Positions 28,001-62,838 of a stretch of DNA of 64,000 nt are shown in pieces. The stretch lies in the NCBI GenBank assembly GCA_964586045.1, contig CAZPFY010000001.1, positions 154-64,153 of the forward strand, read 5' to 3'. The position numbers were made by a program, and so were the translations under genes. The stretch is from an uncultured Pseudomonadales bacterium. GTDB taxonomy: Bacteria; Patescibacteriota; Microgenomatia; UBA1400; MFAQ01. The notes under the pieces are model-generated. The model had not been told where the DNA came from. It did not search any database and saw only the letters and a list, made by a program, of their open reading frames with translations. Position 1 is the first letter of the stretch. The number at the start of each line of letters is the position of its first letter.

Positions 28001-31000
28001 GCTAGGATTGTTGCTTATTCCGCCCGTGCCACCGTTGTAGCCGGCAGAGTTTGTGTTGACAGTAGTTCCGGTGGGAACAGTTACGGTGCCGCTAGCGCGG
28101 AAGAACATAACACCACCTTTGGGAGCGGTCCAGACTGAGGCGGTAAAGTCAGTTCCGGCATTGGAGAGAGTAACGTCGGTGTAATTGGGAACACGTTGGA
28201 GCATGACACGTTGATTGGTGGTGGCGGTACCAAGATTGGTGTCGTTGCCTGGATCATCGCCGTAGGTTTTATTTTTGGCTGTTGTAAAAGTAATGGTTGA
28301 GGTAGAGACAGAAGCAATTCTTAAAGTTTCGTAGTTGCCAACATTTAAATATTTTGTAGAAGTACCCTGAAGATTGATAAGAAGGACTTCATCGCCGGCG
28401 GATAAACAGCCGGTGGATGGGGTAGTGGAAAGGGTAGCAGTCGTGGGAGTGAGAGCGGTTACTGAATAATTGACAGCGTCTCCACCATCGGCGCAAGAGC
28501 GACCAGTAATCGAATTGGCGGTATTGATGTTGGTGTCAGTAGTGATAGCGATGGCACCATCAGAACCGGTACCATAAACATAAGTGCTACTGAGGGCAAT
28601 ATTGGTAGTTTTGAGTTTGTTGGTTGATGACGAAGTGGTATTTACCATAGCCAGATCCTGGTTGGTGGTTGTAGTCCAGTCAGAGATTTTTTTCCAAAGT
28701 GAAGTCACTGTATCGTAGAACCAACCGGTAAGAGAAAGGTCATTTGTGTTTTGATTGTGAGCAATTTCAACGTAACCACCACTTAAAGTTGCCGATTGAG
28801 TGGAGTAAGCGGTCATATCCATGGCAAGGCGGTGCCAGACAGAGTCTTGGCCATACATGAAGAGACTGCCGGTGTTGCCAATGGTGTGAACGTTGTTTAG
28901 ATTTCCAGAAATGGTGGCGCTGTTGTAGTAAATAGATCCAGCAACGCCGGTGGGGATAGCGGTTAAACTTTGGAGGGTAATAGTGCCGGAGTCATTGATG
29001 CGGAATTCGTCGCCACCAGTTGAATTCGTATTAAATGAGAGATACGTAGTTCCAGCGTCACTGATTGTTGATGAGCCAATTAAAGCTGTACCGGTAGTAC
29101 CATTACCAATTGTCAAGGCTGGGTTGGCGGTACCATCTATGGTTAGGGTACTAGAAATTTTAGCGTCTCCATTGACATAAAATTCCATATTGGATGGCAT
29201 CGAATTGGTTGAATCTCCAACTCTTAGATTACTAGTTACATTCCATTGGGTCCCTGCGGTTCCTGTAAGTTGGCGATTGGCAATACTAATTTGTTCGACA
29301 CCCAAGTGGTTGTTGATACCTTGGCTTAGAAATAGATTTTTCCAAGCTGTGCCACTAATGCCCAAAGTTGTTTCATCGTTTGCTCCTGGAACCAGATCGC
29401 CACTGTTTAGGATTTTAAGAAAAGTTAATAAGCCAGCATCACCACCCTGAGAAGTGGCAAAAGATAAATCAGCTCCGTTGAGAACGTTAATGGTTGGACT
29501 TGCTCCTCGGAAAGTAAGAGATCCTGAAGTGGAAGCATCTCCGGCTACATCAAGTTTTGAGGTTGGGGTGGTTGTACCTATTCCAATGTTGCCGGTGCCA
29601 TTGGGGTTGAGGAGAATGTTACCGGTGGTATTGTAGGTGCTGGAATTTCCGAGAGTTAAAGTTTGGCGGCGGGTTGTTCCCAAAGTTCCATTGCCGGTGA
29701 GGTAGGTTGTTCCGGCGATACTGGCAACTGGGGTGCCAAGATTGTTGTTTAGAAAAGAAAAGTTGGCACTGAGTGTTGACTGGCCACCGACGAGTAAATC
29801 AAGGGTAGAGTTTTTGGGGTAGATGGCCCCGTTGCTTGAAAGCCAATTTTCGGCAATGTTTTGGTTAGTTATTTCAGTGTCGAGATCTTTGAGGACGCCT
29901 TGAACAGTGAGAGAGTTGCTGTTTGAAAATTCATCGAAAACACCGATTAAGTAAGCACCACTGTCGTTGTTGGCAGTAGATTCGGCAAGGGTGGTGGTGC
30001 CACCAAAGATTAAATTGGCGGCGGAATTGATTTGAAGGCTGCTGGTATTGGATATGTATACGTTGCCTCCTGCGGACTGAAGGCTGAGGTTGCCAGCCAC
30101 ATCGCTAATGGAGTGGGCAACGCCATTGATCATGTTAATGGCGCCAAGATTACTAATATTAAATTTGGTGATACCAGAGGCTGAAGCACTGAAGAGTGAT
30201 CCTGTGCCGTTTTGATTTACAGTGAGTGCTGAAGTAACAGCAGAACCGGTTGCGGTATTGATGCTAGTACGGCCATCTGCTAAAACCCAAAACTTTGCAG
30301 ATTCAGTTGCCCCGGAAGAAAGTAGAATGAGTTTGCCGCTACCGGTGGCGATATCATTACCAATATATCCTGACAATAGAGAACCAGTTGTCAAATTTGC
30401 ATTTGTAGTTCTAAAAGTGTCTTCGGTAGTAGTGCCGCCAATTGCTAAAATTTGGCCGGACCCAATAGCGTCTGGTTGAATAACAATGTCTCCACCAGAA
30501 TTGGTGGCTGTTGTTAAAGAAATACTTTGGCCCTTGAGATTAAAATTTCCTGATGTTGAAACGATGGATGGTGAACTGGCGGCGATATTAAGATTGCCGG
30601 AGTTGTCAATTACGGGGACAGTGTTGATAGTTGCAGATGCTGACGCAGGATACCCCTGGAGGGTTTCGGAATTGAGGGCGTAGCCGACGGTGGCAATCTG
30701 TTGTCTGGGGGTAAGGGTTTCGGCGCCGACAGTAACTGCTAGGTAAACATCGCGATTATCACTAAAGACAGATTGGGGAATTTCACTGCCACAAACGCTG
30801 TCGCCTATGAGACTGTTAAAAACACCGTCGGAGTCCGGGGTAACAGAACAAGTACCGGTGGTATATAGTTGGCTGCCGGCGGTAAGATGATTCCAAAGTT
30901 TGAAATTGACATTGACGGCAGTGTTAATTGGAGTTCCAGATGAATCGGAGAGTCTGCCCTGGAAAGAAAGTTGTCTGCGGGGGGCGGTTAGAGAGGTGGC

Positions 31001-31891
31001 GGCTGAGCTGGGTTTGGCTTGTTTGATGATTTGGTTGTAGCCCAAAATGCCCATGGTGGTGGTAGCGATTACAAGCAAGGCGAGATGGAAGTAGGGAGTA
31101 AAAGGAAGGGCATTGTACTTGTGGTAAAAAACTGCCAAACGGCTTTTGGAGGGATTCTGAGGGTTTTTGGGTTTGGGAATAAGGCGATTGAGCCAGGCTA
31201 AGGGAGTAATTTTGGCTTCGGTTACGGTAATTTCAAAAGGATCCTTGGGAATTAGACTGCGGTTAAAACAAAAGTGAGTAAGCTTTTTAATAGATGATTG
31301 TCGTCTGCTGATAACAGAAGAGCTGGCGCGGGTTAGTTTTAGATAAGCAATGTAACTAGCTAATTGTTCGGTACTTAAAACTTGTTCGAGGTGGCTAGCG
31401 TTAAAAGGAGTTTGATTGGCAATCCAAGAAAAATAGTGATAAAGATCTGAAAGATAGTTTTTGACGGTAGAATGAGTTTTCTTTTCGTTTATTAATTGTT
31501 GTTTGAATTGTTCAAGAATTTTTTTGCTTGAAAGGTCCTTATTGTTGTTTGCATTGTTTGATGTATTTGGAGTTGGTTCGGATAAAGTTTCTATTTTGGT
31601 GATTTGATACTTGATGTTTAAGAAATTGGATAGTCTTCTGATGGAAGCAAGTCTGCGATTGGTGGTTGCGGGTGGTGTGAGAGTAGAGGATTGTTCCTGA
31701 CTGTATTTGCTGATGTATATTGATAGGTTTTGAAATACTTCGGTAAGATTAAACTGCTTTTGAGATTCCAAAAAGCGAAGAAAGTGCCTAACATCACTAA
31801 GGTAGTTTTTTATGGAAACAGCTGAAAGCCCAGACTCAATAAGAAATGAAGTGAAGAGCTTTAGGATTTCGGTATTGTTGGGCAGGTTCAT
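22046..31891 (-). CDS. giant (3281 aa) surface protein: two tandem integrase core-binding-like N-terminal domains, TM anchor, Gly-rich beta-helix-like regions, internal ~750-aa tandem duplication, C-terminal fibre-like region
   Basis: Uninterrupted 9.8-kb ORF. The two core-binding-like motifs are SIKNYLSDVRHFLRFL and TVKNYLSDLYHYFSWI. The TM is FHLALLVIATTTMGILGY. There are long GGGGG/GGAGG tracts and duplicated modules (ETLRIASVSTSTITFTT... / ETLRISSLAGNVITFTT..., and YFEDEDITN... / YFEDEDEATV...). Confidence 0.85.
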   Translation of the reverse strand: MNLPNNTEILKLFTSFLIESGLSAVSIKNYLSDVRHFLRFLESQKQFNLTEVFQNLSIYISKYSQEQSSTLTPPATTNRRLASIRRLSNFLNIKYQITKIETLSEPTPNTSNNANNNKDLSSKKILEQFKQQLINEKKTHSTVKNYLSDLYHYFSWIANQTPFNASHLEQVLSTEQLASYIAYLKLTRASSSVISRRQSSIKKLTHFCFNRSLIPKDPFEITVTEAKITPLAWLNRLIPKPKNPQNPSKSRLAVFYHKYNALPFTPYFHLALLVIATTTMGILGYNQIIKQAKPSSAATSLTAPRRQLSFQGRLSDSSGTPINTAVNVNFKLWNHLTAGSQLYTTGTCSVTPDSDGVFNSLIGDSVCGSEIPQSVFSDNRDVYLAVTVGAETLTPRQQIATVGYALNSETLQGYPASASATINTVPVIDNSGNLNIAASSPSIVSTSGNFNLKGQSISLTTATNSGGDIVIQPDAIGSGQILAIGGTTTEDTFRTTNANLTTGSLLSGYIGNDIATGSGKLILLSSGATESAKFWVLADGRTSINTATGSAVTSALTVNQNGTGSLFSASASGITKFNISNLGAINMINGVAHSISDVAGNLSLQSAGGNVYISNTSSLQINSAANLIFGGTTTLAESTANNDSGAYLIGVFDEFSNSNSLTVQGVLKDLDTEITNQNIAENWLSSNGAIYPKNSTLDLLVGGQSTLSANFSFLNNNLGTPVASIAGTTYLTGNGTLGTTRRQTLTLGNSSTYNTTGNILLNPNGTGNIGIGTTTPTSKLDVAGDASTSGSLTFRGASPTINVLNGADLSFATSQGGDAGLLTFLKILNSGDLVPGANDETTLGISGTAWKNLFLSQGINNHLGVEQISIANRQLTGTAGTQWNVTSNLRVGDSTNSMPSNMEFYVNGDAKISSTLTIDGTANPALTIGNGTTGTALIGSSTISDAGTTYLSFNTNSTGGDEFRINDSGTITLQSLTAIPTGVAGSIYYNSATISGNLNNVHTIGNTGSLFMYGQDSVWHRLAMDMTAYSTQSATLSGGYVEIAHNQNTNDLSLTGWFYDTVTSLWKKISDWTTTTNQDLAMVNTTSSSTNKLKTTNIALSSTYVYGTGSDGAIAITTDTNINTANSITGRSCADGGDAVNYSVTALTPTTATLSTTPSTGCLSAGDEVLLINLQGTSTKYLNVGNYETLRIASVSTSTITFTTAKNKTYGDDPGNDTNLGTATTNQRVMLQRVPNYTDVTLSNAGTDFTASVWTAPKGGVMFFRASGTVTVPTGTTVNTNSAGYNGGTGGISNNPSDGGESYCNANGGGGGADYDNNPVGSVGICGGGGGGGVNAATLYNANIAGSSIGGAGGGGGSAGAATGASGYGYGGGGAGGGYGTIGNGGKSGNTPTSDGVNGSGVTSGNGGTSAWTTTTGPAYAGGGGGGGTYGDTYLDKAYFGSGGSGGGAGDTGTTTYVASNGGAGGKGGGILMISAATLSVTSTGGIQSNGGAGSAAATATYPGSGGGGAGGSVKIVADTVTTSTTDLITAAGGAGDTTAVDGGTGGVGRIAVSYKNTLTANSSEPDFPTSPYLHQSGYYGIYVSKEINTTGAVNLNSFAYTETLNTYGQVEAQTRTGNTPDSTDGSWEAWKPVVTTTNIKNLNAMDATADWTATNLNAVADGTLARNVNYFEDEDITNAANKSIKLGSVGAENGYAEDTITSTDLTNFDLISAWVYATASGQIKLGIGESAATEQEEIIQIDATGTWQKVYWDISDVASASKNAITKLRITLLSPNQTVYVDSLQSEELIVASGTAPTSTPKNYFQYRFILTSSNGQATPSISNISLTYSDGASHTIDASSIRLANSTDYYSSSHLTVSETALSALSNSGITSNATGVTQAGDYDPGNGADGAGTVTSGTKVLSTDSIVGRTCADAINYSVNTLTSTTATLSTIPSTPSCLKTGDEILLINLQGTQGSIVNVGNYETLRISSLAGNVITFTTSKGKYYGDGAGDDTNLGIGVNNQKVMLQRVPNYTSVTVDSSATLSPSAYDYTTGLGGVLFFRAISAVSVAGSINATGKGYPGGTGAISTTTRSIPGHSLFYTSGVDGDGGTPLTPNNLGQNGVYSGGGGGGRHLTDGIGTGGVGTSTTGAGGGGGAGSASSNGSSYNGYGGGGGGGGYAAGGSGGTGPTIASNGDTNQSGSGTSGGSVGSGFGGGGGGGGAGNYGESSLGKLYLGSGGGGGGAGQATTGTYYSGLAGGGGGGIVIINSDTISVSGSILSKGDDSLTGTAASTQGGGGAGAGGSIKILGNTLSLGSSLVSSNGGAQIAGLSNFEGGSGGDGRVAIYYASTLTGTTSPAAAVAQTPSYNYSMYISEEMPTPNSTGYNKIKWLADLDTYGMIELQTRSGKSANSIDGTWEAWKPVVANTNKLDVIDMNTDTLWGMVDLTRADGGVARNVDYFEDEDEATVGNMTKFSSVGSPNGYSETTVTAKDLTNYDYLTAWVYATSSGNLVKFGFGESTGTEQEKTFYIQAANTWQKIYWDLTDINTTNRNAVTKLRISLPSTNTTLYVDNITADRYLTNADGSTVSSTPNEYFQYRAILTTTNPAYHPTLRSVQLDWSNGFKIVQTDMNTVRLYNKTGETIQIRLDAVVYGADLAEWYTVEDPSIEAGDLVAITGKTDPFGVPILRKTSSPNDQYLVGAISTKAGQELGITAENRRLLGLAGRIPVKIDPSSQDIKAGDSLTSSPLPGFATKAMPNDKVIGTAFEDWIPNIGKGVVLIHINNGIAPNPTTFSSRVYRLISNTNELFDETAGRFVNTVGSFAKVITGSISTNQLVSPTIETSFLTPMASTASITISPNLLSDNTQPLLIVEGQIKASTVFAKQGNFDELNTNSIVTNTITADKIYANQIEGLDAKIASLSSSFNNEEITILTNQISLKLNQNHATSSSSIASEIINNLKLGSNIVMNLLIDNLTVQQKLITPIADIDQLKVNIATVSGTLYANNIKSETIDKLKAQLDVLNEKYSTASSIFASIQEKYSQYDSLFSALDSETNPTNDPLQLSSLATESASLPTDMAFKNLNIEVLTTNDILANGSIFSQSISSFGTDLFIQPSGDKPVHLLANLMTLYPNGQIVVDGDLIVTGNIFANNLDTRTATVSGTLAVGKGELATDSAKILALFNQDGNVVGSVDASGSANFDKLTTYGLVIASGNNLDSTISGQTSSNSTIGTASIATGSSEIFINSSKINDDTLVYITPISDTNNQVLFVKSKQSHVGFTIAIPQPIEDEISFNFWLVQTK
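24000..28550. repeat. approximately 2.3-kb tandem duplication (two copies) within the second giant gene, including Gly-codon (GGN) rich tracts
   Basis: Two homologous ~750-aa protein modules with matching order of motifs. The plus strand shows CCACCACC runs at about 25.0-25.7 kb and 27.3-28.0 kb. The boundaries are approximate. Confidence 0.55.
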
Positions 31892-32471
31892 GAACAGACT
31901 ACGCTTTTAAGAGGCTATTAAAATTAAAAATAAAATAGGAATGACAAAAATTGTTCCTGCGGTAATTAATTCGAGATAGAGAGCCTTGTTGGAAGTACTA
32001 CTGCTTAAAAAGTCTTGTTGGGAGTAGTCGTTTATTAACATGATTTTTTGATTGTTGATAACTTGTCTTTAGGTTCAGATTAGACGATATTAGACGGTTA
32101 TATATTAACTATAAAATAGATTATTTCTGATGTCAATGGCTAGACCAAATATTGTTCTTTAGTTGATTGTTAAGTTTGTGCGTAAATTATTTTTAAAAGG
32201 AGAGGTAAGAGGAATTTGTTTATTTTATCGACGCATTAGATTGCGTTAATAAATATTTTCATGCGTTTAATGAAGCTAAAATAGACTAAATATACGCGGA
32301 AATACTGTTTATGCTTATGACTGCTGTGAAAATATTCAATGATATCTTTTGATTCGTATAGATATCAATTGATAGACAATGATTTCCTTAGGCATTACAG
32401 CTTACAAAATACACTCTGATTTTTTTGGATATTGACTGGTCCTTGTTGGTTCGGGAAGATTAATCTTTTGC

Positions 32472-43575: not shown

Positions 43576-44865
43576 TTGGGTTACAATTATCAAATGAGAT
43601 TTGCGCCAAAAATTCACAAGATAGGAAACCTAAAAGTCGTTCTGGTTCCAGAAGATAGAGAGTCGGTTACGGTTCGGGTGATGATTGGGACGGGAAGCCG
43701 AGAGGAGACGGATAAAGAGGCTGGTTCGGCGCATTTTTTGGAACACTTTGTATTTAAGGGGACCAAAAAGTTTCCAGGAATGTATGACATCAACGAGGCG
43801 GTGGAAAAAGTAGGCGGTGCCTTTAATGCTTACACTGGCCAAAACGAAATGGGCTTTTGGGTGAAGATGGCCAAGAATCATTTGGAGACAGCTATGAGTA
43901 TTGTGGCTCAGGTAGTAACCGAGCCACTTTTGCCTGAAGAACACTTCGATAAAGAGAGGGGGACGATATTGGAAGAACTACACATGTATGAAGATCGACC
44001 AAGTAGTAAGGCGGCAGAGGAATGTGGCAAATTGCTTTTTGGGAAAACAAATATGGGAAGACCAATAATTGGGACGGTGGAAAGTTTGAATGCCATGTCA
44101 GTTACTGATTTGCGAAATTATTTTGACAAATGGTTTGTGGCCGAAAATATTACGGTGGGGGTGGTGGGAAGTTTTGGTGATGAGAATAGGGTAATAGAGT
44201 TGATCAAAAAAGAATTTGTTAAATTGGTTGAAGACAAGAGAAAATTACCGATGAAAAATAAATTTATTTGGGAAAAGAGTGAATCAATAAAGACAAAGTT
44301 GGTTAGTCGTAAAGTAGAGCAAGCGGCGGTAGTAATGGCTTTTAGGGGAATTGATATGAATGATGAACGACGATATTCGCTAGAACTTCTTAATATTATT
44401 TTGGGGGATGGGTGGACATCTCGATTGATGCGAGAAGTGCGAGAGGAAAGGGGTTGGGCTTATGCTTTGGGGTCGGATGTGGATCAGTTTACGGATGCCG
44501 GGGAAATATTTATCGGAGCTGGTTTGCCAAAGAATAAATTAAAAGAGGCGGTTAACTTGATTACGGAAATTTGTTACGGATTGGGAGAGCCAAAAAGTAA
44601 ATGGGTGATAAAAGAAGAGGAGCTAAAGGTAGCAAAAGAGTGTTTTAGGGGGAGGATGGCTTTGGCGATGGATAAGCCGGAAAATGTACTAGGTGAAGCA
44701 CTGGATGATGTTACTTTTCGGGGTCATATAATGAGTCCAGAAGAGACGTTGGAGAAGATTGAGAGTGTGAACCTATCGGAGACATTAGAATTGGCCAGAG
44801 AGCTTTTAAAGGAGAAGTATTTAAGCATTGCCGTGGTGGGAGATTATACGAAGTTACCGTTTTAG
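43576..44865 (+). CDS. M16-family zinc peptidase (insulinase/pitrilysin-like)
   Basis: 429 aa. The inverted zinc motif HxxEH is present as GSAHFLEHFVFKGT, with the downstream Glu-rich region expected of M16. Confidence 0.9.
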   Translation: MGYNYQMRFAPKIHKIGNLKVVLVPEDRESVTVRVMIGTGSREETDKEAGSAHFLEHFVFKGTKKFPGMYDINEAVEKVGGAFNAYTGQNEMGFWVKMAKNHLETAMSIVAQVVTEPLLPEEHFDKERGTILEELHMYEDRPSSKAAEECGKLLFGKTNMGRPIIGTVESLNAMSVTDLRNYFDKWFVAENITVGVVGSFGDENRVIELIKKEFVKLVEDKRKLPMKNKFIWEKSESIKTKLVSRKVEQAAVVMAFRGIDMNDERRYSLELLNIILGDGWTSRLMREVREERGWAYALGSDVDQFTDAGEIFIGAGLPKNKLKEAVNLITEICYGLGEPKSKWVIKEEELKVAKECFRGRMALAMDKPENVLGEALDDVTFRGHIMSPEETLEKIESVNLSETLELARELLKEKYLSIAVVGDYTKLPF

Positions 44866-44875
44866 GCAAAAAATT

Positions 44876-44898
44876 GCCTCCCATAAGGGAGGTCTTTT
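44876..44898 (+). terminator. rho-independent terminator after the M16 peptidase gene
   Basis: GCCTCCCATAAGGGAGGT hairpin followed by CTTTTCG. Confidence 0.6.
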
Positions 44899-45052
44899 CG
44901 ATTGGGAATCTGCAAGGGTTAGGGTATTCAATACTTCATGAGTAAGCTCCGTTGCACGGCCTTATCGGCAATTAGTCCGGTTACGCTGGAAAGCGGCCAC
45001 CTGGTTTTTTGAATCAGTTAGGAGCAAATGGCTCCATACCAGGGTGCTAATA

Positions 45053-45110
45053 GGTAGTATTATAACCTATAGTTGCTAATTTGTCAAGTTGGGGAATTTT
45101 TGGCAAAAAA
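45053..45110 (+). repeat. conserved intergenic motif copy A (GGTAGTATTATAACCTATAGTTGCTAATTTGTCAAG, then TTTTTGGCAAAAAAA)
   Basis: Near-identical ~35-bp motif found four times in the window. It may be a promoter or operator. It is immediately followed by a bidirectional terminator-like hairpin at 45112-45165. Confidence 0.6.
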
Positions 45111-45615
45111 ATAACCTGTGTCCATCAGCTTTCGCTATTGATGACTACAGGTTTTTTTGGTTTCGGCTTAAGTATCCGTAACGTTGGCGGCCGCGCTCCC
45201 CACTTTCTGGCGTCCCAACGTGTTAGGTCCTTTATCGCTTCTATGTGTCCTGGGAAGAGGATACTCTGATGAATGTGGAATCTCAACAGATGTCAATTTC
45301 TCCCGATCACCACTGAAAAGCGGTGTTTTAACTTGTCCAAACTACTCTACGCTCCGAGGTTAATCGGGCACTAAGATTCCTTTTTAAGGCCGCTTAATAG
45401 AGATTTACGCTTGGTGATAAGTTTGCTGGACTACGGTGCATAGCCCCACAGGCCTCGTCAATGGACGTCTTACCTTACCTGTGGGGCCACAATATCATTT
45501 TGATTTTTAATGCTCCTTTTTTACACCGGCTCGGCCGGGCTATTGAGGCGCGACTTTGTGCACCAAGGCTTTTTTTGAACCTGGGTTGTAAGAGGGGCGG
45601 GTTGCCCTTCTTGAT

Positions 45616-45674
45616 GAGGTTATTATATCTCATAATGTATCTGTGTCAATAACTAGTTTTTTTGGCAAAAAAAA
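45616..45674 (+). repeat. conserved intergenic motif copy D (divergent; TATTATATCTCATAATGTATCTGTGTCAAT, then TTTTTTGGCAAAAAAAA)
   Basis: Shares TATTATA, CTATA/TCATA, TGTCAA and the TTTTTGGCAAAAAAA extension with copy A. Confidence 0.45.
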
Positions 45675-46131
45675 TGCCAGGTAAGCGATGCAAGCGCGAT
45701 AGTGTCTCGACTAATCTGAGCCACTATGGTTGATATCGTCAGTACCTGGCAGGCCGGTTTTCGGCTGATGGCGACTCTCGTGAGTATCCCCCGAGAGAGT
45801 GCGAACCCATACGAATGGGTTATTCACCGTTATTAGCGGTGCAGCTTTTAAACTCATTGATTGACTCAGCGGGGGATTCCCGTGAAGTGCTTCAGATGAA
45901 GTTTCGCAATTGGGATAAGAATCTATATCACAATTTTGAGCTGCACGAGGGCTTTTCTCCTTTCTTTTCCGCTCAGGGGCGGGTTATTGCCGGCGATCGT
46001 GCCGGACTGTTTTTTTGTGTCCATCGACGCAGGTTCCTGCCTGGAGGGCGAGGATATCGGTGGACGGTGCAGTTTGGCGGATTTTCCGTTCGGGATAGTC
46101 GTTCAAGAGCATCCCTTATCAAACCAAATAT

Positions 46132-46167
46132 GGGAGTATTCTAGCCTATAGTTGCTAATTTGTCAAG
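46132..46167 (+). promoter_or_regulatory. conserved intergenic motif copy B, probably overlapping the promoter of the 46208 gene (TTGCTA, 17 nt spacer, TAGAAT)
   Basis: GGGAGTATTCTAGCCTATAGTTGCTAATTTGTCAAG, with TAGAAT 17 nt after TTGCTA. About 40 nt upstream of the ATG. Confidence 0.5.
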
Positions 46168-46207
46168 ACGATGGTAGAATTGGCCATCCTAATAGTTTGG
46201 AGGAACA

Positions 46208-46450
46208 ATGAAAATTAAGCTTGGTATTACTGGTTTGTATCTGTTTGTTTTGGCGGCCGTTCTGTTTCTTGCCAAAACAATTGATTTGCCTTACGGGTAT
46301 ATCCCGCAGTGGGCCGGATACATTGGTTTGGGGTTGATGTTCCTTGGTATCGTGTTCATGGCCATTGATTCTGGTCCGTGGAACAGAATCAAGAAATCAG
46401 GCGATCACGATGCACCGTTTCGGATAAGGAAGCCAAAAAAAGAAGAGTAA
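46208..46450 (+). CDS. small membrane protein (2 TM helices)
   Basis: 80 aa with a GGAGG RBS, followed by a strong terminator. Confidence 0.5.
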   Translation: MKIKLGITGLYLFVLAAVLFLAKTIDLPYGYIPQWAGYIGLGLMFLGIVFMAIDSGPWNRIKKSGDHDAPFRIRKPKKEE

Positions 46451-46474
46451 AAATAAGTTTATCTGTTTGAAACT

Positions 46475-46503
46475 GAGACGCCGTAAGGCGTCTCTTTTAT
46501 TTG
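46475..46503 (+). terminator. rho-independent terminator
   Basis: GAGACGCC-GTAA-GGCGTCTC hairpin followed by TTTTATTT. Confidence 0.75.
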
Positions 46504-46561
46504 GGGGAATCGTAAGAATGGAGTTGCAAATTTTGGAAAATGAAGGTATAGATTAGAGCTA

Positions 46562-47152
46562 ATGAGTGATACAAAAACTGGACCGAGGGAGTATCGTCCC
46601 TTGAGTATTCCTGGAGCAACAATAATAAGGCCAAAATTAAACGTGGGTAAGTATGATGGTTGGTTGATTGAGCCGGTGGATTTTTCGGAAGCTAGTTACT
46701 ATTTGGGATATAAATTTGATCCGAGAAGTATGTATGCTACGTGGGCGCCTGAGGGAATTGTCCGCGGTGGTCATATGGAGAGTAGGTCCAAGTTGGTAAC
46801 GATATTGTCTGGTTTGGTTTATTATGTTTTGGTAGATATGCGACCAGGAGAAAATCAGGGTAAGGTGGAGCAGTTTTATTTGGGTGATGGGATAGAAGAG
46901 GCATGGGGAAGATCTGTTTTGGTTCCAGAGGGGGTAATTGATGCTTATGTGGTGGTCAGTGAAAATGCATTGCATTTGGGAGTTGGAGATCAGCCCTATA
47001 ACGCTTTTTATTCTTTGAAGACACTTGACTTGTTTGATAAGAACCTTGGAATTAATTGGCCGGTTATTGGTGATAGAGCAACATACAACGATTCGCATAG
47101 AGATAACCAAGTGGTTTTGCCAAAAGAGGAATTTATAAAAAGTTTGTATTGA
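46562..47152 (+). CDS. RmlC-like cupin (dTDP-4-dehydrorhamnose 3,5-epimerase-like) protein
   Basis: 196 aa. The RmlC-type pattern is RGGHME, then KLVTILSGLVYYVLVDMR, then GRSVLVPEGVIDAYVV, then INWP. Confidence 0.6.
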   Translation: MSDTKTGPREYRPLSIPGATIIRPKLNVGKYDGWLIEPVDFSEASYYLGYKFDPRSMYATWAPEGIVRGGHMESRSKLVTILSGLVYYVLVDMRPGENQGKVEQFYLGDGIEEAWGRSVLVPEGVIDAYVVVSENALHLGVGDQPYNAFYSLKTLDLFDKNLGINWPVIGDRATYNDSHRDNQVVLPKEEFIKSLY

Positions 47153-47155
47153 GAT

Positions 47156-48208
47156 ATGGATAAAAATAATTTACAAAACGATGCAGCTTATGAGGTAGCT
47201 TCAATGAAGAGTAGTGCCAGGTATTGGTTTAAGCGAGATTTTTGCGACATTCGACATGGTAAGGACAGATCGATTTTGATTGCTTTGGAAAAGGCTGGTT
47301 GGAGTGGTGATAATGGGTTGGGTCAATTGCCTTGGAACATCCGAGTTGAGGACAAAAGGTCTTTTCAGGCTTGGAAGTTGGGAATTTTGAGTATTAACGG
47401 TGAAGATAAATTGGTTTTTGAGAGATTTTTGAGAGGTATAAGCGGAGTTAAAACAGATACATTTAATTTATCTTACTTGCCCAATTGGATAATTGAGGAG
47501 TTGGAGCAAGTGGCTTTGGAAATAACTCAGAGGGATTTCGAAAAAGAAGCAGGTGAGTTTGTGGAGAAAATAGCGCGACAAGCAAAAGAGGAAAAACAAA
47601 GTCAAAAAGCAACTTTGTCGGCTAAAGTAGAAGAACTATCGATTGGTGGTTTATTTCATATCATGTCGCAGACGCGAGGCGACGAGAGGGGAAGTTTTCG
47701 GGAGGTAGCCAGAATGCCGGAAATAGAACTTTTGACGGGTTATGATTTTGTGGGGAAGCAAGTAAATCACTCAATGTCCACCTATGGAATTTTGCGAGGG
47801 ATGCACGTAGAACCTTGGGCAAAACTGGTAACGGTGATTCATGGTTTTGCGGTTTCTGTTTTGCTTGATTGCCGTTTGCATTCCAGAACCTATGGCAAGA
47901 TGGAGACTATCTTTTTGGGTTATGGAAAAGCACCGGACGGAGAAGAAGTAAAAGGAGGAGCCCTGTTTATAGAGCCAGGAATTGCGAACTCTGTTTTGGT
48001 TTTATCTGAGAAGATGGATTATCAATATGTAGTTGATGATTTGTGGAGGCCTGAGACAGCACTTTACTCGGTTAATCCCATGGATTCTGAACTAGCAATT
48101 GATTGGGGCAAATATGTGTCTTTGGACAAAATAACCAGGTCGGAAAGAGATACCAAGTCGCCAACATTCGCTGAGTTTACTAAATTAATGAAAGAAAATG
48201 GAAAATAA
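47156..48208 (+). CDS. two-domain protein: unknown N-terminal domain plus C-terminal RmlC-like cupin (sugar-nucleotide epimerase/isomerase-like)
   Basis: 350 aa. The C-terminal half has DERGSF, then LRGMHVEPWAKLVTVIHGFAVSVLLDCR, then ALFIEPGIANSV, then AIDWG, matching the RmlC-like order. Confidence 0.55.
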   Translation: MDKNNLQNDAAYEVASMKSSARYWFKRDFCDIRHGKDRSILIALEKAGWSGDNGLGQLPWNIRVEDKRSFQAWKLGILSINGEDKLVFERFLRGISGVKTDTFNLSYLPNWIIEELEQVALEITQRDFEKEAGEFVEKIARQAKEEKQSQKATLSAKVEELSIGGLFHIMSQTRGDERGSFREVARMPEIELLTGYDFVGKQVNHSMSTYGILRGMHVEPWAKLVTVIHGFAVSVLLDCRLHSRTYGKMETIFLGYGKAPDGEEVKGGALFIEPGIANSVLVLSEKMDYQYVVDDLWRPETALYSVNPMDSELAIDWGKYVSLDKITRSERDTKSPTFAEFTKLMKENGK

Positions 48209-48569
48209 AAATATGAAAGTAGTTGCGGTTGATTTTGATGGGGTAATTCACAAATATTCTAAGGGTTGGGGCGATGGCAGTATTTACGATGTTGCGGTTG
48301 AGGGGGCAAGCGAGAGTTTGGAAAAATTGGTTGCTGACGGATGGAAGGTAATTATTTTTACTACCAGACTTAATCCAGAAGTTAATGAAGATATTTTGCT
48401 GGAGAGAAATAAAATGATGAAGTGGTTACATGATAATGGTATTATTTTGAATCGACATTTTCACGAAATAACGGCGGTGAAGCCATCGGCGAAATATTAT
48501 ATTGATGACAAAGGGATTCGGTTTACTGACTGGGAGGCAACTATCAAATTTGTAAGCGAAAATGCCTGA
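48198..48569 (+). CDS. small HAD-superfamily hydrolase (nucleotidase/phosphatase-like)
   Basis: 123 aa. HAD motif I is VVAVDFDGVIH. A Lys/Asp-containing C-terminal motif (YIDDKG) is consistent with motif III/IV. Confidence 0.55.
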   Translation: MENKNMKVVAVDFDGVIHKYSKGWGDGSIYDVAVEGASESLEKLVADGWKVIIFTTRLNPEVNEDILLERNKMMKWLHDNGIILNRHFHEITAVKPSAKYYIDDKGIRFTDWEATIKFVSENA

Positions 48570-49173
48570 AGTACAAGAAATGTTTGTTAGTGAAGAGAGT
48601 GAGAAAACAGATGAGCTGTTGCGAATAGTGAAAGAGACGAAAAATATGCGTGGTGAGCCGATATATGAAAATTCTGAAATTAGTTTGCGCGAGTTTGACC
48701 CCAAAGATTTACATCCTTCGGCGGTTTATATGTTGGAAGCTAACTTAGAGTTTCTTGAGGCAATGTACTATGACTTGTTTAAAGAAGGAATCGATATTTT
48801 TAATTTGGATCAAATTGTCGAAACAGAGAAATATGGCAAAATTGCTCCGCCAATTGTAGAGATGGCAGTAGATGAAAAAGGTAATCGGGTCCCGACAATA
48901 GTGGATGGAATTCATAGGTCAAAACTAGCGATGTATTTGGGAAAGAGAATAAAAGTGGTTTTGATTGATGGGGTTAACCCTGATTATCCCTTGATTGGTT
49001 TGCCGGCTGATTGGGATGAGGTCAAAATTTACAGAGGGAAGCCTCAGGCTGAGCCAGAACTGAGAAAGTTACGACCAGGCATGGTGGGATTGGAAGACAA
49101 AAGCCATCTCTTTAGAAATCTGGAGCCAGTGGGGGCGAACAAGAGACAGTTGATGGCTTGGCAGAAGGGGTAG
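48562..49173 (+). CDS. ParB/sulfiredoxin-fold (ParB-like nuclease domain) protein
   Basis: 203 aa. PPIVEMAVDEKGNRVPTIVDGIHRSKLAMYLGKRIKVVLIDG contains the DG.HR signature of the ParB N-terminal domain. Confidence 0.45.
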   Translation: MPEVQEMFVSEESEKTDELLRIVKETKNMRGEPIYENSEISLREFDPKDLHPSAVYMLEANLEFLEAMYYDLFKEGIDIFNLDQIVETEKYGKIAPPIVEMAVDEKGNRVPTIVDGIHRSKLAMYLGKRIKVVLIDGVNPDYPLIGLPADWDEVKIYRGKPQAEPELRKLRPGMVGLEDKSHLFRNLEPVGANKRQLMAWQKG

Positions 49174-49321
49174 GTGAGTTGACTTTTGACCCATAGTGTG
49201 ATAGAATACCCAATCGAGGAAGTTCATTGATTTAATATGTTTTAGTTGTCATTTTCTCTTGTTTACGCTCTTCTAAAAGAATGCGTGTGATAAGAAAAGA
49301 TGGCTAATTTGCGGAGGCAAA

Positions 49322-50140
49322 ATGGCAGATTGGAAGGAGTTGCTTGCCCAGTGGCAGCAAAATATTGAACGTAAATACCCAAAGTTGGTTGGAACGAAGG
49401 CGCTGCTTGGTGTAGCTGCCTGGTATAACCGTGTTCTTAACGAATTGGGTGACTACACCATTGAAGAGGCACCGATGGAAGATGCTCTCTGGAAAGTGGT
49501 TCACGATGACGACGGCAAACATTTGCGCATTGAGAGATACGATGGTACTTTTTTTAGAGTTATCAGCGTACTTTGTCGCAAGGGTAAGTCTACTTGGCTA
49601 CAGCCGGTACTGGAAAGCATCCATTCGCTCATGAAAGTGGTGTTGTGGGGTGAAGAGGTAGAGGTGCCGGTTTATGGACTGTTGATGGTCATTCGTGACA
49701 GTGAAGGCAAGATTTTGCTATCAATAGGCCAAGAAACCATGGCTGATACACCCAAGAAAGCGGTGGTTAGATTGCCCCTGCAAGCATCTTGGGGAAAGAT
49801 TTTGTTGATGCTGGCCGGGAAGGCGAGTGATGTAAGTATCGAAGCCTTGATGGCGATTTATGACTGCCAAACCGTGCAAGAGCTGTTAGCCCTTGCTGTC
49901 GAAAGAGGGCGAGAGCCTTTTGAGGATTTAGATCGTGGTTGGAAAAACAATGTCGTTTGGATTATGCCGACCGTACAGGTTGGTACCGAACTTCACGAAA
50001 AACTGACCTCGAACGGATCCATGATGTGGGTTGATCCTTTGCAGTGGAAGATTATCAAGATGTCGGGACTGACGGGTTTGCATACAGTTGGTCCTATTGA
50101 CATGATGTACACGTTGGATGCTCTGAAGGAATACGAGTAA
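49322..50140 (+). CDS. hypothetical protein (noticeably higher GC and Trp content than neighbours)
   Basis: 272-aa ORF with no recognizable motif. Local GC is visibly higher than the window average. Confidence 0.45.
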   Translation: MADWKELLAQWQQNIERKYPKLVGTKALLGVAAWYNRVLNELGDYTIEEAPMEDALWKVVHDDDGKHLRIERYDGTFFRVISVLCRKGKSTWLQPVLESIHSLMKVVLWGEEVEVPVYGLLMVIRDSEGKILLSIGQETMADTPKKAVVRLPLQASWGKILLMLAGKASDVSIEALMAIYDCQTVQELLALAVERGREPFEDLDRGWKNNVVWIMPTVQVGTELHEKLTSNGSMMWVDPLQWKIIKMSGLTGLHTVGPIDMMYTLDALKEYE

Positions 50141-50149
50141 TTTTGTTGA

Positions 50150-50180
50150 GACTGTCTTTGATTAGGCAGTCTTTTTTTTG
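50150..50180 (+). terminator. rho-independent terminator
   Basis: GACTGTCTTTGATTAGGCAGTC hairpin followed by TTTTTTTT. Confidence 0.75.
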
Positions 50181-50386
50181 TGCCAAAATTTAGTTTAAAA
50201 AAAAGAATCCCCGCTCTGGAGCGGGGTTCGGTTGGGGTGAAGTAGGTTGCTTGGCCTAAGTGTCTGTTGTCGCACCGTCGAAACGCAACAGTGGGGCTTA
50301 GCGGGCTCTAATCACACCCTTTTGGGTATGGAAGGAGGGGGAACCTCCTTTTTCGGGGCTGGATTTCCAGCAAAAGTTAAGTTGTA

Positions 50387-50421
50387 GGAGTATTTTATCC
50401 TATAATTGTTTATTTGTCAAC
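50387..50421 (+). promoter_or_regulatory. conserved intergenic motif copy C upstream of the 50525 gene
   Basis: GGAGTATTTTATCCTATAATTGTTTATTTGTCAAC is the same motif as copies A and B. Confidence 0.45.
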
Positions 50422-50524
50422 TTGGGTGGCTTGGGGCGATATTTATGATATCTTGTGCCTAAAATATGACAACTGATATGACAACTGACGAAATGTACTT
50501 GACAACTATATTTAAACTGTTAAA

Positions 50525-51565
50525 ATGTATTGTATAAGTATGACCATACAAGATCAGATAATAAAAATCGCAACAAAAGAGGGAACTGTTAGGACCGCTG
50601 ATGTTTTAAAGAGTTTAAAGCCTGCGGTAACTAGGGGATACTTGAGTTTAATAATGTCTCGAATGACAAGAGATGGTTTGCTAGTGAAAACAGGATCAAC
50701 TTCAAAGTCTGTATATGCTTTGTATAAAAATGGAGATTTGCTGGGAAATGTCTTTAAAAAGCATTTGGCTAGAAGCACCACAAAAGAACATGAAGTACTG
50801 GATGTGCTTAACAGAAAAGTGCCTTTTTTGTTTAAATTGGATGAAAACTTGAGAAGCATTTTGGATTTTTCTTTTTCTGAAATGTTAAATAACGCCTTAG
50901 AACATTCTGAATCAAAGTATATTGACATTAAGGTATTTGTTGATTCTAAATACCTGAATTTTACTGTGTCTGACCTTGGTATTGGTGTTTTTAAAAATGT
51001 AATGAAGAAGAGGGGTTTGGGGTCGGAATTCGAGGCCATGCAGGATATTTTGAAAGGAAAAACTACCACTCAACCCCATGCACATTCTGGCGAAGGAATC
51101 TTTTTTACTTCAAAAATGGCTGACATATTTGTTTTGGAAAGTTATGGATACTCGATGAGAGTGGATAATATAATTCCTGATATATTTTTTGAGCAAGTTA
51201 AACCGATTAAAAAAGGAACGAGAGTGCATTTTTGCATTAGAAGAGAGACTGATAAACACTTGAAAGATACTTTTATGAACTACGAAACTGATCACGAAGA
51301 TCCCGATTTTGACAAAACAGAGATTCACGTAAAACTATATAAAATAGGCACGGTTTACGTATCTCGATCACAAGCTAGGAGAATTTCATATGGTCTTGAG
51401 AAGTTTAATCACGTTGTTTTGAACTTTGAAAAAGTACCAACTATCGGACAAGCTTTTGCAGACGAGATATTTAGAGTTTTTAAAAATAAATATCCAAATA
51501 TTTTGATTACCTCTATTAATATGAATGAGGCGGTTAAGTATATGGTTAATAGAGCGAGTAAATAG
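50525..51565 (+). CDS. HATPase_c (GHKL, anti-sigma-factor/RsbW-like) ATP-binding protein with N-terminal wHTH-like region and C-terminal STAS-like (DUF4325-like) domain
   Basis: EMLNNALEHS (N-box), VSDLGIGV (G1) and SGEGIFFTS (G2). The C-terminus VVLNFEKVPTIGQAFADEIFRVF is STAS-like. Confidence 0.5.
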   Translation: MYCISMTIQDQIIKIATKEGTVRTADVLKSLKPAVTRGYLSLIMSRMTRDGLLVKTGSTSKSVYALYKNGDLLGNVFKKHLARSTTKEHEVLDVLNRKVPFLFKLDENLRSILDFSFSEMLNNALEHSESKYIDIKVFVDSKYLNFTVSDLGIGVFKNVMKKRGLGSEFEAMQDILKGKTTTQPHAHSGEGIFFTSKMADIFVLESYGYSMRVDNIIPDIFFEQVKPIKKGTRVHFCIRRETDKHLKDTFMNYETDHEDPDFDKTEIHVKLYKIGTVYVSRSQARRISYGLEKFNHVVLNFEKVPTIGQAFADEIFRVFKNKYPNILITSINMNEAVKYMVNRASK

Positions 51566-51568
51566 AAT

Positions 51569-51808
51569 TTATTTTTTTGGCTTGGGGGGGTGTTTGGCCT
51601 CGGATTGTTTGATGCTGGTGCAGATGGGGCAGAGGGTTGGTTTGTCGGTTGACCAGTTTGTCGGTTGACCAGTTTGTCGGTTGATCGGTTTGTCGGTGTT
51701 TCGGAGTTGCTCGTAGACGGAGTAGACAAAAGGATTGCCACAGTTTTCGCATTTTAGAAGTTGGTCTTGCATGAGAGTATTATATCCGCTAAGGGTGGAA
51801 GAGTACAA
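51569..51808 (-). CDS. small zinc-ribbon protein with an in-frame 17-bp tandem repeat expansion
   Basis: CENCGN...CPIC forms the Cys4 pair. The central repeat encodes NRQTGQPTNWSTDKLVNRQT variants. Confidence 0.45.
   Translation of the reverse strand: MYSSTLSGYNTLMQDQLLKCENCGNPFVYSVYEQLRNTDKPINRQTGQPTNWSTDKPTLCPICTSIKQSEAKHPPKPKK
51640..51700. repeat. 17-bp tandem repeat (GTTTGTCGGTTGACCAG, about 3.5 copies)
   Basis: Direct inspection. Copies are at 51640, 51657 and 51674, plus a partial fourth. Confidence 0.85.
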
Positions 51809-61203: not shown

Positions 61204-62838
61204 TTGAGATACAATAAAATCATGTTGGCACGAATTGAGAGCGTGGCTTGTGTGGGACTAGAGAGTTTTTTGGTGGAGGTAGAAGTGGATGTGGCGGAGA
61301 AGGGCTTCCCCGGGTTTAGTATTGTGGGGCTGGCTGACAAAGCGGTGGGTGAGGCAAAAGAGAGAGTAAAAACAGCCTTGATTAATAGTGGTTTTGAGTT
61401 TCCACAGAAGAAAATAATCGTCAATTTGGCACCGGCCGATCTGCCTAAGGAGGGATCGGCGTTTGATTTGGCGATTGCTATGGGGATTTTGGTGGCTAAT
61501 GGGGATATCGAGATAAAAACTCAAAAAATCGAAAACTCAAAAACTCAAAATATCGCTCAAAACTCGGAGATTGCTTCGGTTCGGAATACCGAAACTCGCA
61601 ATGACGACGTGGAAAGTAGCGATATATTTTTTGGGGAGTTGTCGCTCGATGGGAGTTTGCGACACACCAAAGGGGCACTTTTGGTAGCTCTTTTTGCCAA
61701 AAAAGAGAAGAGGAGGAGAGTGTTTGTGCCGGTATTGTCGGCGAATGAGGCGGCGGTAGTGCCTGGAGTAGAGGTAATGCCGGTGAGGAACTTAAAAGAA
61801 CTAATAGTTCACTTTTTGGGAGATAAGAAGATAAAACCTCTGAGAACAATTGAAATAAAAAGCTTGGTGGAAACGGCGATGCCAGACTTTGACATGGCGG
61901 ATATTGTAGGCCAGGAATCGGCGAAGCGAGCCTTGATGGTAGCGGCGGCTGGGGGACACAATATGCTCATGTCTGGGCCACCAGGATCGGGTAAAACCAT
62001 GCTCTCCAGGGCTTTACCTGGAATAATGCCCCCGATGACCGAGGAGGAGAGTATGGAGGTTACTAGGGTTTACTCGGCTTCGGGATTGATGGAAGCGGGA
62101 GAAGCGATTGTGCGCAGAAGGCCATTTCGGTCGCCTCATCACTCGACGAGCCTTGCTGGCTTAATAGGAGGTGGCAGTAGGCCTATGCCTGGGGAAGTGA
62201 GCCTCGCTCACTTGGGGGTATTGTTTTTGGATGAGATGGCGGAGTTTCCCCGGAGCGTGTTGGAGGCCATGAGGCAACCAATGGAGGATGGGAAGGTGGA
62301 GATATCAAGAGTAGCCGGGAGAATTAGCTATCCTGCGTATTTTCAGCTCATTGCTGCGGTGAACCCGTGCCCTTGTGGCTATTTGGGGCACCCAACTAAA
62401 GAATGTAAGTGTACGAGTAGAGAGGTTGAGAAGTATAAAAGAAGGATAAGTGGGCCTATTTTGGATAGAATAGATTTGCATATCAATGTCCCGGCGGTGG
62501 AGACAGAAAAGATCGTGGGGAATGTAGAAAAGGGAGAAAGCTCTCTGGTGATTAGACAAAAAATTGTCAAAGCGCGACAAATTCAAAGCACAAGGTTTGG
62601 TAAAGGGAAAATTTATTGCAATGCCCAGATGAAAAACAAGCAAGTGAAGGAGTTTTGCGATCTGGATGAGGAGGGGTTAAAAATCCTGAAATTAGCCATG
62701 GAAAAGTACGATCTGTCGGCCAGGGGCTACTTTCGGATTTTAAAGGTGGCCAGGACGATAGCGGATTTGGAGAATAGTGAGAAGATTTTGAGCTCGCATT
62801 TGGGGGAGGCGCTGCAGTACCGGGAGAGGGTGTTTTAG
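61204..62838 (+). CDS. comM: YifB/ComM-family Mg-chelatase-like AAA+ ATPase with an in-frame heptamer-tract plus repeat-element insertion
   Basis: N-terminal Lon-like ChlI domain. Walker A is MLMSGPPGSGKTM. The insertion IEIKTQKIENSKTQNIAQNSEIASVRNTETRNDDVESS lies between the ILVANGDI and FFGELSLDG motifs, which are normally about 10 aa apart. Confidence 0.9.
   Translation: MRYNKIMLARIESVACVGLESFLVEVEVDVAEKGFPGFSIVGLADKAVGEAKERVKTALINSGFEFPQKKIIVNLAPADLPKEGSAFDLAIAMGILVANGDIEIKTQKIENSKTQNIAQNSEIASVRNTETRNDDVESSDIFFGELSLDGSLRHTKGALLVALFAKKEKRRRVFVPVLSANEAAVVPGVEVMPVRNLKELIVHFLGDKKIKPLRTIEIKSLVETAMPDFDMADIVGQESAKRALMVAAAGGHNMLMSGPPGSGKTMLSRALPGIMPPMTEEESMEVTRVYSASGLMEAGEAIVRRRPFRSPHHSTSLAGLIGGGSRPMPGEVSLAHLGVLFLDEMAEFPRSVLEAMRQPMEDGKVEISRVAGRISYPAYFQLIAAVNPCPCGYLGHPTKECKCTSREVEKYKRRISGPILDRIDLHINVPAVETEKIVGNVEKGESSLVIRQKIVKARQIQSTRFGKGKIYCNAQMKNKQVKEFCDLDEEGLKILKLAMEKYDLSARGYFRILKVARTIADLENSEKILSSHLGEALQYRERVF
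61515..61553. repeat. AAAACTC-type heptamer tract inside comM, immediately upstream of the repeat-element copy
   Basis: AAAAACTCAAAAAATCGAAAACTCAAAAACTCAAAAT, translated as KTQKIENSKTQN. Confidence 0.75.
61563..61605. mobile_element. MITE/RPE-like repeat, right-half copy inside comM (in frame)
   Basis: CTCGGAGATTGCTTCGGTTCGGAATACCGAAACTCGCAATGACG, identical over 43 nt to the 59562..59604 part of the intergenic copy. Translated as SEIASVRNTETRND. Confidence 0.7.

Follow-up and report, generated by a model that had tools for sequence, protein, structure and literature searches.

Predicted strong sigma-70-type promoters and candidate structured RNA genes in a variable, tRNA-flanked interval of Collierbacteria genomes

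A motif of about 35 bp recurs four times in the stretch of DNA considered here, a 64,000-nt piece of an uncultured bacterium (hereafter the window: contig CAZPFY010000001.1 of assembly GCA_964586045.1, positions 154 to 64,153 of the forward strand). A first-pass annotation had offered two explanations, namely a promoter or operator dedicated to a regulon of protein genes, or the boundary repeats of an acquired segment of higher GC content. We arrive at a different reading. Judged by its sequence, the motif represents a distinct and conserved type of very strong minus-strand promoter, sigma-70-like and specific to this lineage, and each of the four copies probably drives its own structured non-coding RNA (ncRNA) gene, a reading to which we assign a probability of roughly 80%. 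The four candidate genes fall outside the described families. We regard them as new, lineage-specific members of a familiar kind of element, the ncRNA gene; what is unusual is the way in which they turn over as cassettes.

What exactly is being repeated? A repeat search of the window confirmed the recurrence and returned a 36-nt family at 45053-45088, 46132-46167 (92% identical) and 50386-50421 (78%), to which a divergent fourth copy at 45616-45650 is added; the 22-nt core TTGACAAATTAGCAACTATAGG has 0, 0 and 3 mismatches at the three 36-nt sites, with 0.00 occurrences expected (100 shuffles). The strand on which the motif had been read proves to be the wrong one for its hexamers, as all four copies, taken on the minus strand, become TTGACA-16/17 nt-TAnAAT, the arrangement of a sigma-70-type promoter (TTGACA/TATAAT, 16-18 bp apart). 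In 64 kb there are nine promoter sites that match the -35/-10 consensus at 11 or more of 12 positions, and four of the nine are the motif copies, which we call A to D.

45059-45087, minus strand: promoter A; -35 TTGACA at 45087-45082, 17-nt spacer AATTAGCAACTATAGGT, -10 TATAAT at 45064-45059; 12/12.
45622-45649, minus strand: promoter B, the divergent copy; TTGACA, 16-nt spacer, TATAAT; 12/12.
46138-46166, minus strand: promoter C; TTGACA, 17-nt spacer, -10 TAGAAT; 11/12; 92% identical to copy A over 36 nt.
50392-50420, minus strand: promoter D; TTGACA, 17-nt spacer AATAAACAATTATAGGA, -10 TAAAAT; 11/12; 78% identical to copy A.

With the exception of B, the copies resemble one another in the spacer (AAT...CTATAGG) and in the first bases past the -10 as well, and the spacer of C is that of A up to position -14. 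Copy B was rightly described as divergent, having only the two hexamers in common with the others; its 16-nt spacer recurs in its homologue in a related genome (L002; the L numbers used here denote loci of relatives). Upstream of promoter A, at about -40 to -60, a T-run and an A-run occupy the position of an UP element, and this T/A-rich stretch may act as one.

To the left of each promoter lies a stretch with no credible open reading frame (ORF), closing in a GC-rich hairpin directly followed by a U-run, the hallmark of an intrinsic terminator. For A and D this structure was found by a terminator scan; in the other two units the stem is longer, with U7 after that of B and U8 after that of C. 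The predicted units and their ends are as follows.

44866-45052, minus strand: RNA-A, about 187 nt; putative ncRNA, oriented convergently to the M16 peptidase gene; no ORF; promoter and terminator.
44877-44892, both strands: terminator hairpin common to RNA-A and the M16 gene, found on both strands by the scan; followed on the RNA-A (minus) side by CAAUUUUUUGCC.
44860-44874, minus strand: degenerate copy of the terminator tail, ending RNA-A.
45100-45615, minus strand: RNA-B, about 516 nt; conserved structured 5' domain (45615-45250), variable 3' part.
45153-45113, minus strand: hairpin of the RNA-B terminator, then U7 (45111-45105), then GCCAA.
45097-45111, minus strand: T7-GCC-A5 tail UUUUUUUGCCAAAAA; closes RNA-B and lies immediately upstream of promoter A.
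45662-46131, minus strand: RNA-C, about 470 nt; CCGGC-ACGAUC-GCCGG hairpin, then GAAAGGAG.
45750-45676, minus strand: stem of the RNA-C terminator, then U8 (45674-45667), then GCC.
45659-45673, minus strand: second copy of the tail, ending RNA-C, upstream of promoter B.
50197-50385, minus strand: RNA-D, about 189 nt; multi-hairpin; terminator hairpin 50226-50209, then AUUCUUUUUUUU.

Units C, B and A stand head-to-tail in the 1.34-kb gap between an 80-aa gene and the M16 peptidase gene, and unit D lies 4 kb off. The four bodies have no similarity to one another. Their GC content is 0.47-0.53 (window, 0.426), and the folding signal favours the minus strand for RNA-B (z -3.96, against -1.61 for the plus strand) and RNA-D (z -4.24 against -1.96). 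The array also explains an extension of the motif, TTTTTGGCAAAAAAA, that the first-pass annotation had assigned to two of the copies: the element is real (two copies, at 45097-45111 and 45659-45673, and a third, 87% identical, at 44860-44874), although it follows the copies at 45053 and 45616 and not the one at 50387, the copy labels having been inconsistent, and it is the terminator tail UUUUUUUGCCAAAAA of the upstream unit, seen from the other strand. The tail pattern T6GCCA4 occurs 10 times in the window against 0.8 expected. Among 12 non-redundant RNA units of relatives, 8 are enriched in TTTTGC. A match to the tail at 61690, inside a ComM-like coding sequence, we regard as chance.

Conservation between genomes is evidence that some of these stretches are more than spacers. 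RNA-B has a homologue in L002 (E 5e-72), and the first 370 columns of the alignment are 83.1% identical (90-96% in sub-blocks), compared with 40.7% in the 3' part and 54.8% at third-codon positions of the adjacent M16 gene in the same two genomes. The substitutions are distributed 19/21/21 by codon phase, the indels are mostly 1-2 nt, stop codons occur in all frames, and conservation begins exactly at the predicted +1 (ATCAAG); in subfamily C2 it likewise sets in at the predicted +1 (ATAAAGGAAC). A second pair of RNAs, L155a and L163r, is about 92% identical where the M16 DNA of the two genomes is 74% identical. Both RNA-B and the L155a/L163r pair display purifying selection in the absence of a coding signature. 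RNA-C belongs to a family with members in the window, in L159 (two copies; E 7e-11) and, more distantly, in L001, L002 and L160; its stems are invariant, including the CCGGC-loop-GCCGG hairpin followed by GAAAGGAG, and its loops vary. At the level of base pairs, RNAalifold on the two RNA-B sequences gives 87 predicted pairs, of which 0 are broken and 4 are compensatory, and sliding one partner lowers pairing to 39-46% with no compensatory pair; L004r and L157r give 28 pairs, 4 of them compensatory, and the slid controls across both tests yield 0-1 compensatory pairs. The informative RNA alignments comprise 2-5 sequences overall, and we take them as suggestive, not conclusive.

Several observations count against our reading and deserve to be set out together. 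The promoters, start sites and terminators are all consensus matches. RNA-A folds no better than shuffled sequence (z -1.15, minus strand), and in 1.7 Mb of loci neither RNA-A nor RNA-D has a homologue; RNA-A, with a promoter and a terminator as its evidence, is the least supported of the four bodies, and the case for RNA-D consists of promoter, terminator and fold z-score. RNA-C folds well on both strands (z -4.27 minus, -4.03 plus), a signal that is not strand-specific, and its family contains no compensatory change. The covariation tests used two-sequence alignments and structures predicted from those same sequences, and their shuffle controls are weak (22/500 and 31/500). Motifs resembling the anti-Shine-Dalgarno sequence are enriched and mostly base-paired, and in several units a Shine-Dalgarno (SD)-like motif precedes a start codon and a tiny ORF, which makes translation of mini-ORFs possible. 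Finally, no target or partner was identified, and complementarity to neighbouring mRNAs is no better than that of shuffled RNAs (duplex energies: RNA-C against p80, z +0.27; L157r against its neighbour, z +1.9).

Where do such units occur, and how fast do they change? The M16 peptidase gene of the window (43576/43594-44865) retrieves genomes of Candidatus Collierbacteria, which belong to the Microgenomates in the Candidate Phyla Radiation (CPR), at 65-88% protein identity, and in these relatives the gene order is M16, a variable interval, tRNA-Ala(cgc), tRNA-Ala(ggc). We scanned the window together with 93 Collierbacteria-type loci (1.19 Mb) for the extended promoter pattern and obtained 20 matches. 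Without exception these are oriented convergently to M16 and fall between M16 and tRNA-Ala. The consensus from 17 aligned units of about 10 genomes is TTGACAAAT-N7-yTATAGGTTAyAATA, its hexamers (near-)invariant, and the matches precede non-coding, terminated stretches in L001-L004, L120 and L155-L163. For example, L120, with only 66% M16 identity, carries at 7800-8064 (minus strand) the extended promoter and a further unrelated RNA of about 230 nt (fold z -5.49). In a more distant set of relatives (L009, L012, L014, L017 and L025) the gap past M16 is occupied not by RNA units but by a small protein gene on the minus strand, which encodes about 100-130 aa and has an SD sequence in front of it.

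Within this interval the RNA content differs even between close relatives. The M16 proteins of L001, L155 and L159 are 96-97% identical, yet their RNA sets differ. A comparison of L001 with L159 shows flanks of 92-95% identity, no more than 80% identity in the RNA common to both, and insertions of whole units. RNA-B, which comes first in L002, takes the middle position in the window, and across genomes at least six unrelated RNA bodies stand behind an orthologous junction between a zinc-ribbon gene and the promoter. Differences of this kind at high M16 identity, together with the excess similarity of L155a and L163r, fit the exchange, gain and loss of whole cassettes better than simple divergence, and the differing RNA content of near-identical genomes suggests cassette turnover.

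In several relatives the stop codon of the zinc-ribbon gene abuts the -35 box of the RNA promoter; in the window the two are separated by another gene.

51569-51772, minus strand: small zinc-ribbon (zf_Tbcl) gene; PF13451 at 27.9 bits (cutoff 24); tblastn 1e-13 to 9e-20.
50540-51565, plus strand: gene with HATPase_c and DUF4325 (STAS-like) domains, between the zinc-ribbon gene and promoter D; absent from all relatives.

An 18-nt imperfect direct repeat (50427-50444 and 51578-51595), which is the duplicated 3' end of the zinc-ribbon gene, flanks the HATPase/DUF4325 gene, and a relic of that 3' end lies directly upstream of promoter D; the arrangement looks like a single-gene insertion that split the junction in the window. 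The promoter region of the inserted gene contains three TGACAACT repeats (about 50449-50510). The zinc-ribbon gene is seemingly leaderless, with TATAAT 6 nt before its ATG, likewise in relatives, and it holds three tandem copies of a 16-nt repeat (51640-51697).

It is tempting to go a step further and to view the M16-to-tRNA-Ala interval as a dedicated RNA-cassette locus, in which the promoter and the U7-GCC-A5 tail serve as fixed handles and unrelated structured RNAs, 190-530 nt long, replace one another, accumulate in tandem and pass from lineage to lineage. Such a locus would be the counterpart, made of RNA genes alone, of a variable or defence island, and might serve phage defence or the interaction of an episymbiont with its host. 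We offer this as a speculation that we consider doubtful, if attractive.

Somewhat less probable still is the related view that the RNAs are components of conflict systems, i.e. antitoxin, phage-defence or mobile-element RNAs, on exchangeable cassettes. The turnover among genomes with 96-97% identical M16 and the similarity of L155a and L163r beyond that of their hosts would fit, as would the location next to tRNA-Ala, the attachment-site (att)-like scars of L158, the transposase and integrase near the locus in L155 and L156, and the variable HATPase/DUF4325 gene inserted beside RNA-D. Yet no toxin, reverse transcriptase, nuclease or repeat array was found adjacent, the neighbouring small membrane-protein mRNAs have no excess complementarity to the RNAs, nothing matches in phage, plasmid or IMG/VR sequence, and the units have no terminal inverted repeats. 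As to the scars, L158 has at 9860-10240 a tRNA-Ala 3' end duplicated about 110 bp apart beside a disrupted tRNA fragment, features that look like those left by integrative elements.

Could the units instead be expression cassettes for mini-ORFs or micropeptides, in the manner of leader peptides or minigenes, with RNA structure secondary? SD-like pentamers number 37 against 15.1 expected, a count exceeded in 0 of 200 shuffles, and AAAGGA occurs 11 times against 2.1 (z 6.4), in 7 of 12 RNAs at 1-4 per RNA and with moderate accessibility. Several units present an SD motif, 7-14 nt, an AUG and an ORF of 3-19 codons: RNA-B has one of 7 codons, MILWPHR*, conserved as MILWPHK* in L002 and the only small ORF conserved across family members, and the same arrangement appears in the C family, in L158r and in L120, whose RNA contains AAAGGAGG, 8 nt, AUG and a 12-codon ORF. 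Within families, however, neither the length nor the sequence of the mini-ORFs is conserved (the C family has 4, 7, 12 and 19 codons, and in L163r and L157r the AUG is lost), the conservation of RNA-B extends about 250 nt past its mini-ORF with no codon periodicity, and in subfamily C2 the AUG lies within a conserved hairpin. We consider this explanation improbable.

The first of the two original proposals, a plus-strand promoter or operator common to a regulon of protein genes that includes those at 46208 and 50525, retains one true element. A weaker promoter does overlap the spacer of promoter C, back-to-back with it.

46152-46180, plus strand: extended -10 promoter, TTGCTA-17-TGgTAGAAT; 9/12.

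This promoter suits the 80-aa membrane-protein gene at 46208-46450 (plus strand), which is served by it, and L157 keeps it as TGGTAAAAT along with the intergenic sequence beside a homologous 86-aa gene (39% identity, E 5e-10). The TTGCTA-17-TAGAAT promoter reported for the 46208 gene therefore exists, although its overlap with the third copy is incidental to the motif. The conserved TATAGG spacer block and the AAT after the -35 also exceed what a minimal promoter needs, so that a bound regulator is conceivable. Against a regulon stand the invariant positions, which are the minus-strand hexamers; copies A and B, which have no plus-strand gene downstream, only the terminator of another unit; and the relatives, where the plus-strand side of the motif is varied (an opposite-strand zinc-ribbon gene, or terminators). 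The 50525/50540 gene, which one copy (labelled C) had been said to precede, has a separate 11/12 promoter at 50499-50526, about 80 bp away. The idea of a dedicated promoter thus survives in the form of a distinct conserved promoter class, one that would fire leftward into ncRNA genes and not into the genes at 46208 and 50525; a regulon of protein genes we hold to be very unlikely.

Equally little speaks for decaying pseudogenes or neutral spacers with fortuitous promoter- and terminator-like sequences. What would fit is the lack of homologues for RNA-A and RNA-D and of a folding signal in RNA-A, together with the 109-aa plus-strand ORF (45815-46144) that gene callers place antisense to RNA-C. 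This public gene call is probably spurious, as the similarity to L159 shifts frame and meets stops. On the other side, the conservation of RNA-B and L155a goes far beyond what neutral change would leave, and four promoters of 11-12/12, each with a terminator at 190-520 nt, would be unexpected by chance. CPR/Patescibacteria genomes are streamlined, at roughly 1 Mb, and a genome of this kind rarely keeps 1.3 kb of junk.

The second original proposal, that the copies bound an acquired island of about 5.3 kb and higher GC content with genes for cupins, a HAD-like and a ParB-like protein, can be dismissed: the copies do flank the cupin block as direct repeats, in an interval that is variable and that bears att-like tRNA scars in L158, yet the block (46168-50386), whose GC content of 0.423 compares with 0.426 overall and falls at the 57th percentile of 4.2-kb segments, shows no discontinuity and is syntenic in L009, L012, L016-L019 and L022, similarity between the repeats is confined to the promoter of about 36 bp, the tRNA 3' end or att site is not duplicated in the window, and there is no integrase in the block. 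The GC-rich spots are the non-coding stretches by the motif copies. Cupin1-cupin2 begins 3-30 bp past M16 in L016, L018, L019 and L022, and L012 has cupin1-cupin2-p123-ParB in the same M16-side interval; M16 identity in such relatives is 66-72%, and the block proteins, at 38-65% identity, are consistent with vertical descent. Because of this synteny with M16 we regard the cupin block as ancestral and the RNA units as the part that varies.

None of the searches for an established identity returned one. Among the 4227 models of Rfam 15, none reaches its gathering threshold in the RNA regions of the window, and what matches there when the limit is relaxed to E<=10 are chance-level hits to eukaryotic small nucleolar RNA and microRNA models; the RNA units of relatives have no Rfam match either. 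ARAGORN, run for tRNA and transfer-messenger RNA, finds neither in the RNA stretches, the two tRNAs of the window lying elsewhere. There is no blastn match in phage or plasmid collections, and the conserved 20-25-mers have no exact match in IMG/VR; six viral matches to the CGCCGGC...GCCGGCAAT hairpin we treat as chance, with nothing past the motif by nhmmer, and the bare promoter pattern, with 59 matches on viral contigs, is too generic to use. An alternative genetic code was rejected, as reading UGA as sense lengthens stop-free runs only modestly and the flanking genes are normal in code 11. So was a type I toxin-antitoxin pair: the transcripts would be divergent and non-overlapping, there is no antisense signal, and the same membrane-protein family is paired with unrelated RNAs. 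The literature that we searched on regulatory RNAs of CPR/Patescibacteria contains almost nothing, and RNAs of the present kind are not described in it.

How might the candidate genes work? In the scheme that we propose, polymerase would start about 7 nt past the -10 and transcribe leftward through 190-520 nt with no conserved frame, stopping at the GC-rich hairpin and U-run, usually UUUUUUUGCC and then an A-run. In the C-B-A array the terminator tail of one unit would sit at the UP-element position of the next promoter. The products are most likely abundant, structured regulators that act in trans, either by binding and sequestering a protein or by base-pairing. The interval from M16 to tRNA-Ala would be a hotspot where entire promoter-RNA-terminator cassettes come and go, change their order and probably move from one Collierbacteria lineage to another, with the promoter staying conserved.

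Comparison with characterized RNAs helps to place the candidates. Salmonella InvR and Isr RNAs are reportedly small RNA (sRNA) genes encoded on islands, with a sigma-70 promoter and a Rho-independent terminator. The units described here are likewise self-contained and intergenic, with a narrow, patchy distribution in a variable region beside a tRNA gene; unlike those sRNAs, two of the four RNAs in the window are 470-516 nt, far longer than is typical, three units are arranged head-to-tail, and one conserved extended promoter precedes unrelated bodies. To our knowledge, no sRNA biology has been described for CPR hosts, and we know of no Hfq- or ProQ-type partner for these RNAs. In being large, GC-enriched and strongly structured, RNA-B and RNA-C recall the large ncRNAs OLE, GOLLD, HEARO, ROOL and raiA, which stand out as GC-rich stretches between the genes of AT-rich genomes, whereas they match no covariance model, are confined to a few Collierbacteria and have thin covariation support. 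Strong promoters and over-represented, partly single-stranded A-rich GGA motifs are reminiscent of the CsrB/RsmZ sponges; however, the RNAs of the window and its relatives carry 1-4 motifs each, compared with 5-22, and not preferentially in hairpin loops. With sRNAs derived from 3' untranslated regions (DapZ, MicL type) there is the parallel that the RNA promoter of relatives overlaps the zinc-ribbon stop codon with no terminator between, so that the RNA could also arise as the 3' end of that mRNA, but unrelated RNA bodies follow the same junction, and in the window an inserted gene splits it. RNA-A and RNA-D have the size of 6S RNA (about 185 nt) and a strong promoter; their predicted folds, however, string local hairpins together where 6S RNA forms a rod with a central bubble, the 6S model of Rfam gives no match, and the RNAs are not conserved among close relatives as a housekeeping RNA would be.

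If the transcripts are confirmed, the locus would contribute previously undescribed ncRNA families and, for a phylum without cultures, a well-defined strong promoter. Four RNA genes would then take up about 1.5 kb in this one lineage, each placed behind one of the best promoters of a 64-kb window. We know of few bacterial ncRNAs in the size class of about 500 nt, and two of the four would join this sparsely known class. Cassette-like turnover at an orthologous promoter would also make it practicable to study how ncRNA genes rapidly arise, disappear and are exchanged. A more immediate use is that the result flags the probably spurious 109-aa gene call, which has been propagated in public assemblies.

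The wider sequence context adds several observations. The window is 100% identical over 15 kb to groundwater metagenome contigs, and the contigs reached by exact-protein look-ups, being 100% identical to it, carry no polymorphism information. Identical contigs come from SRR2177986/PRJNA292723, JGI 3300009031 and ERZ5996431. Its plus strand is G-rich and C-poor (about 28% G and 14% C) whatever the gene orientation, the cumulative skew rising monotonically; such strand-wide disparity between G and C has been reported in Collierbacteria (PMC7143001). The C-rich strand carries every RNA unit as well as tRNA-Ala(cgc), and the RNA regions are local minima of the strand-wide skew. Two other patches of high GC and negative skew, at 25.0-25.5 and 27.5-28.0 kb, were set aside as unrelated to the motif; they are caused by Gly-rich repeat blocks in one of two giant ORFs with GGN runs (9271-19608 and 22046-31891, minus strand; 3445 and 3281 aa), namely the one of 3281 aa. 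The promoter upstream of this last ORF, at 32136 on the minus strand, is conserved in L001, L002 and L156. A palindromic repeat, CGTCATTGCGA...GAAGCAATCT, adjoins M16 in relatives (L001, about 11300-11470; L159, about 7240-7340; L155, about 7300-7400), and in the window it is found at 61569-61608, in frame within an ORF resembling ComM/Mg-chelatase.

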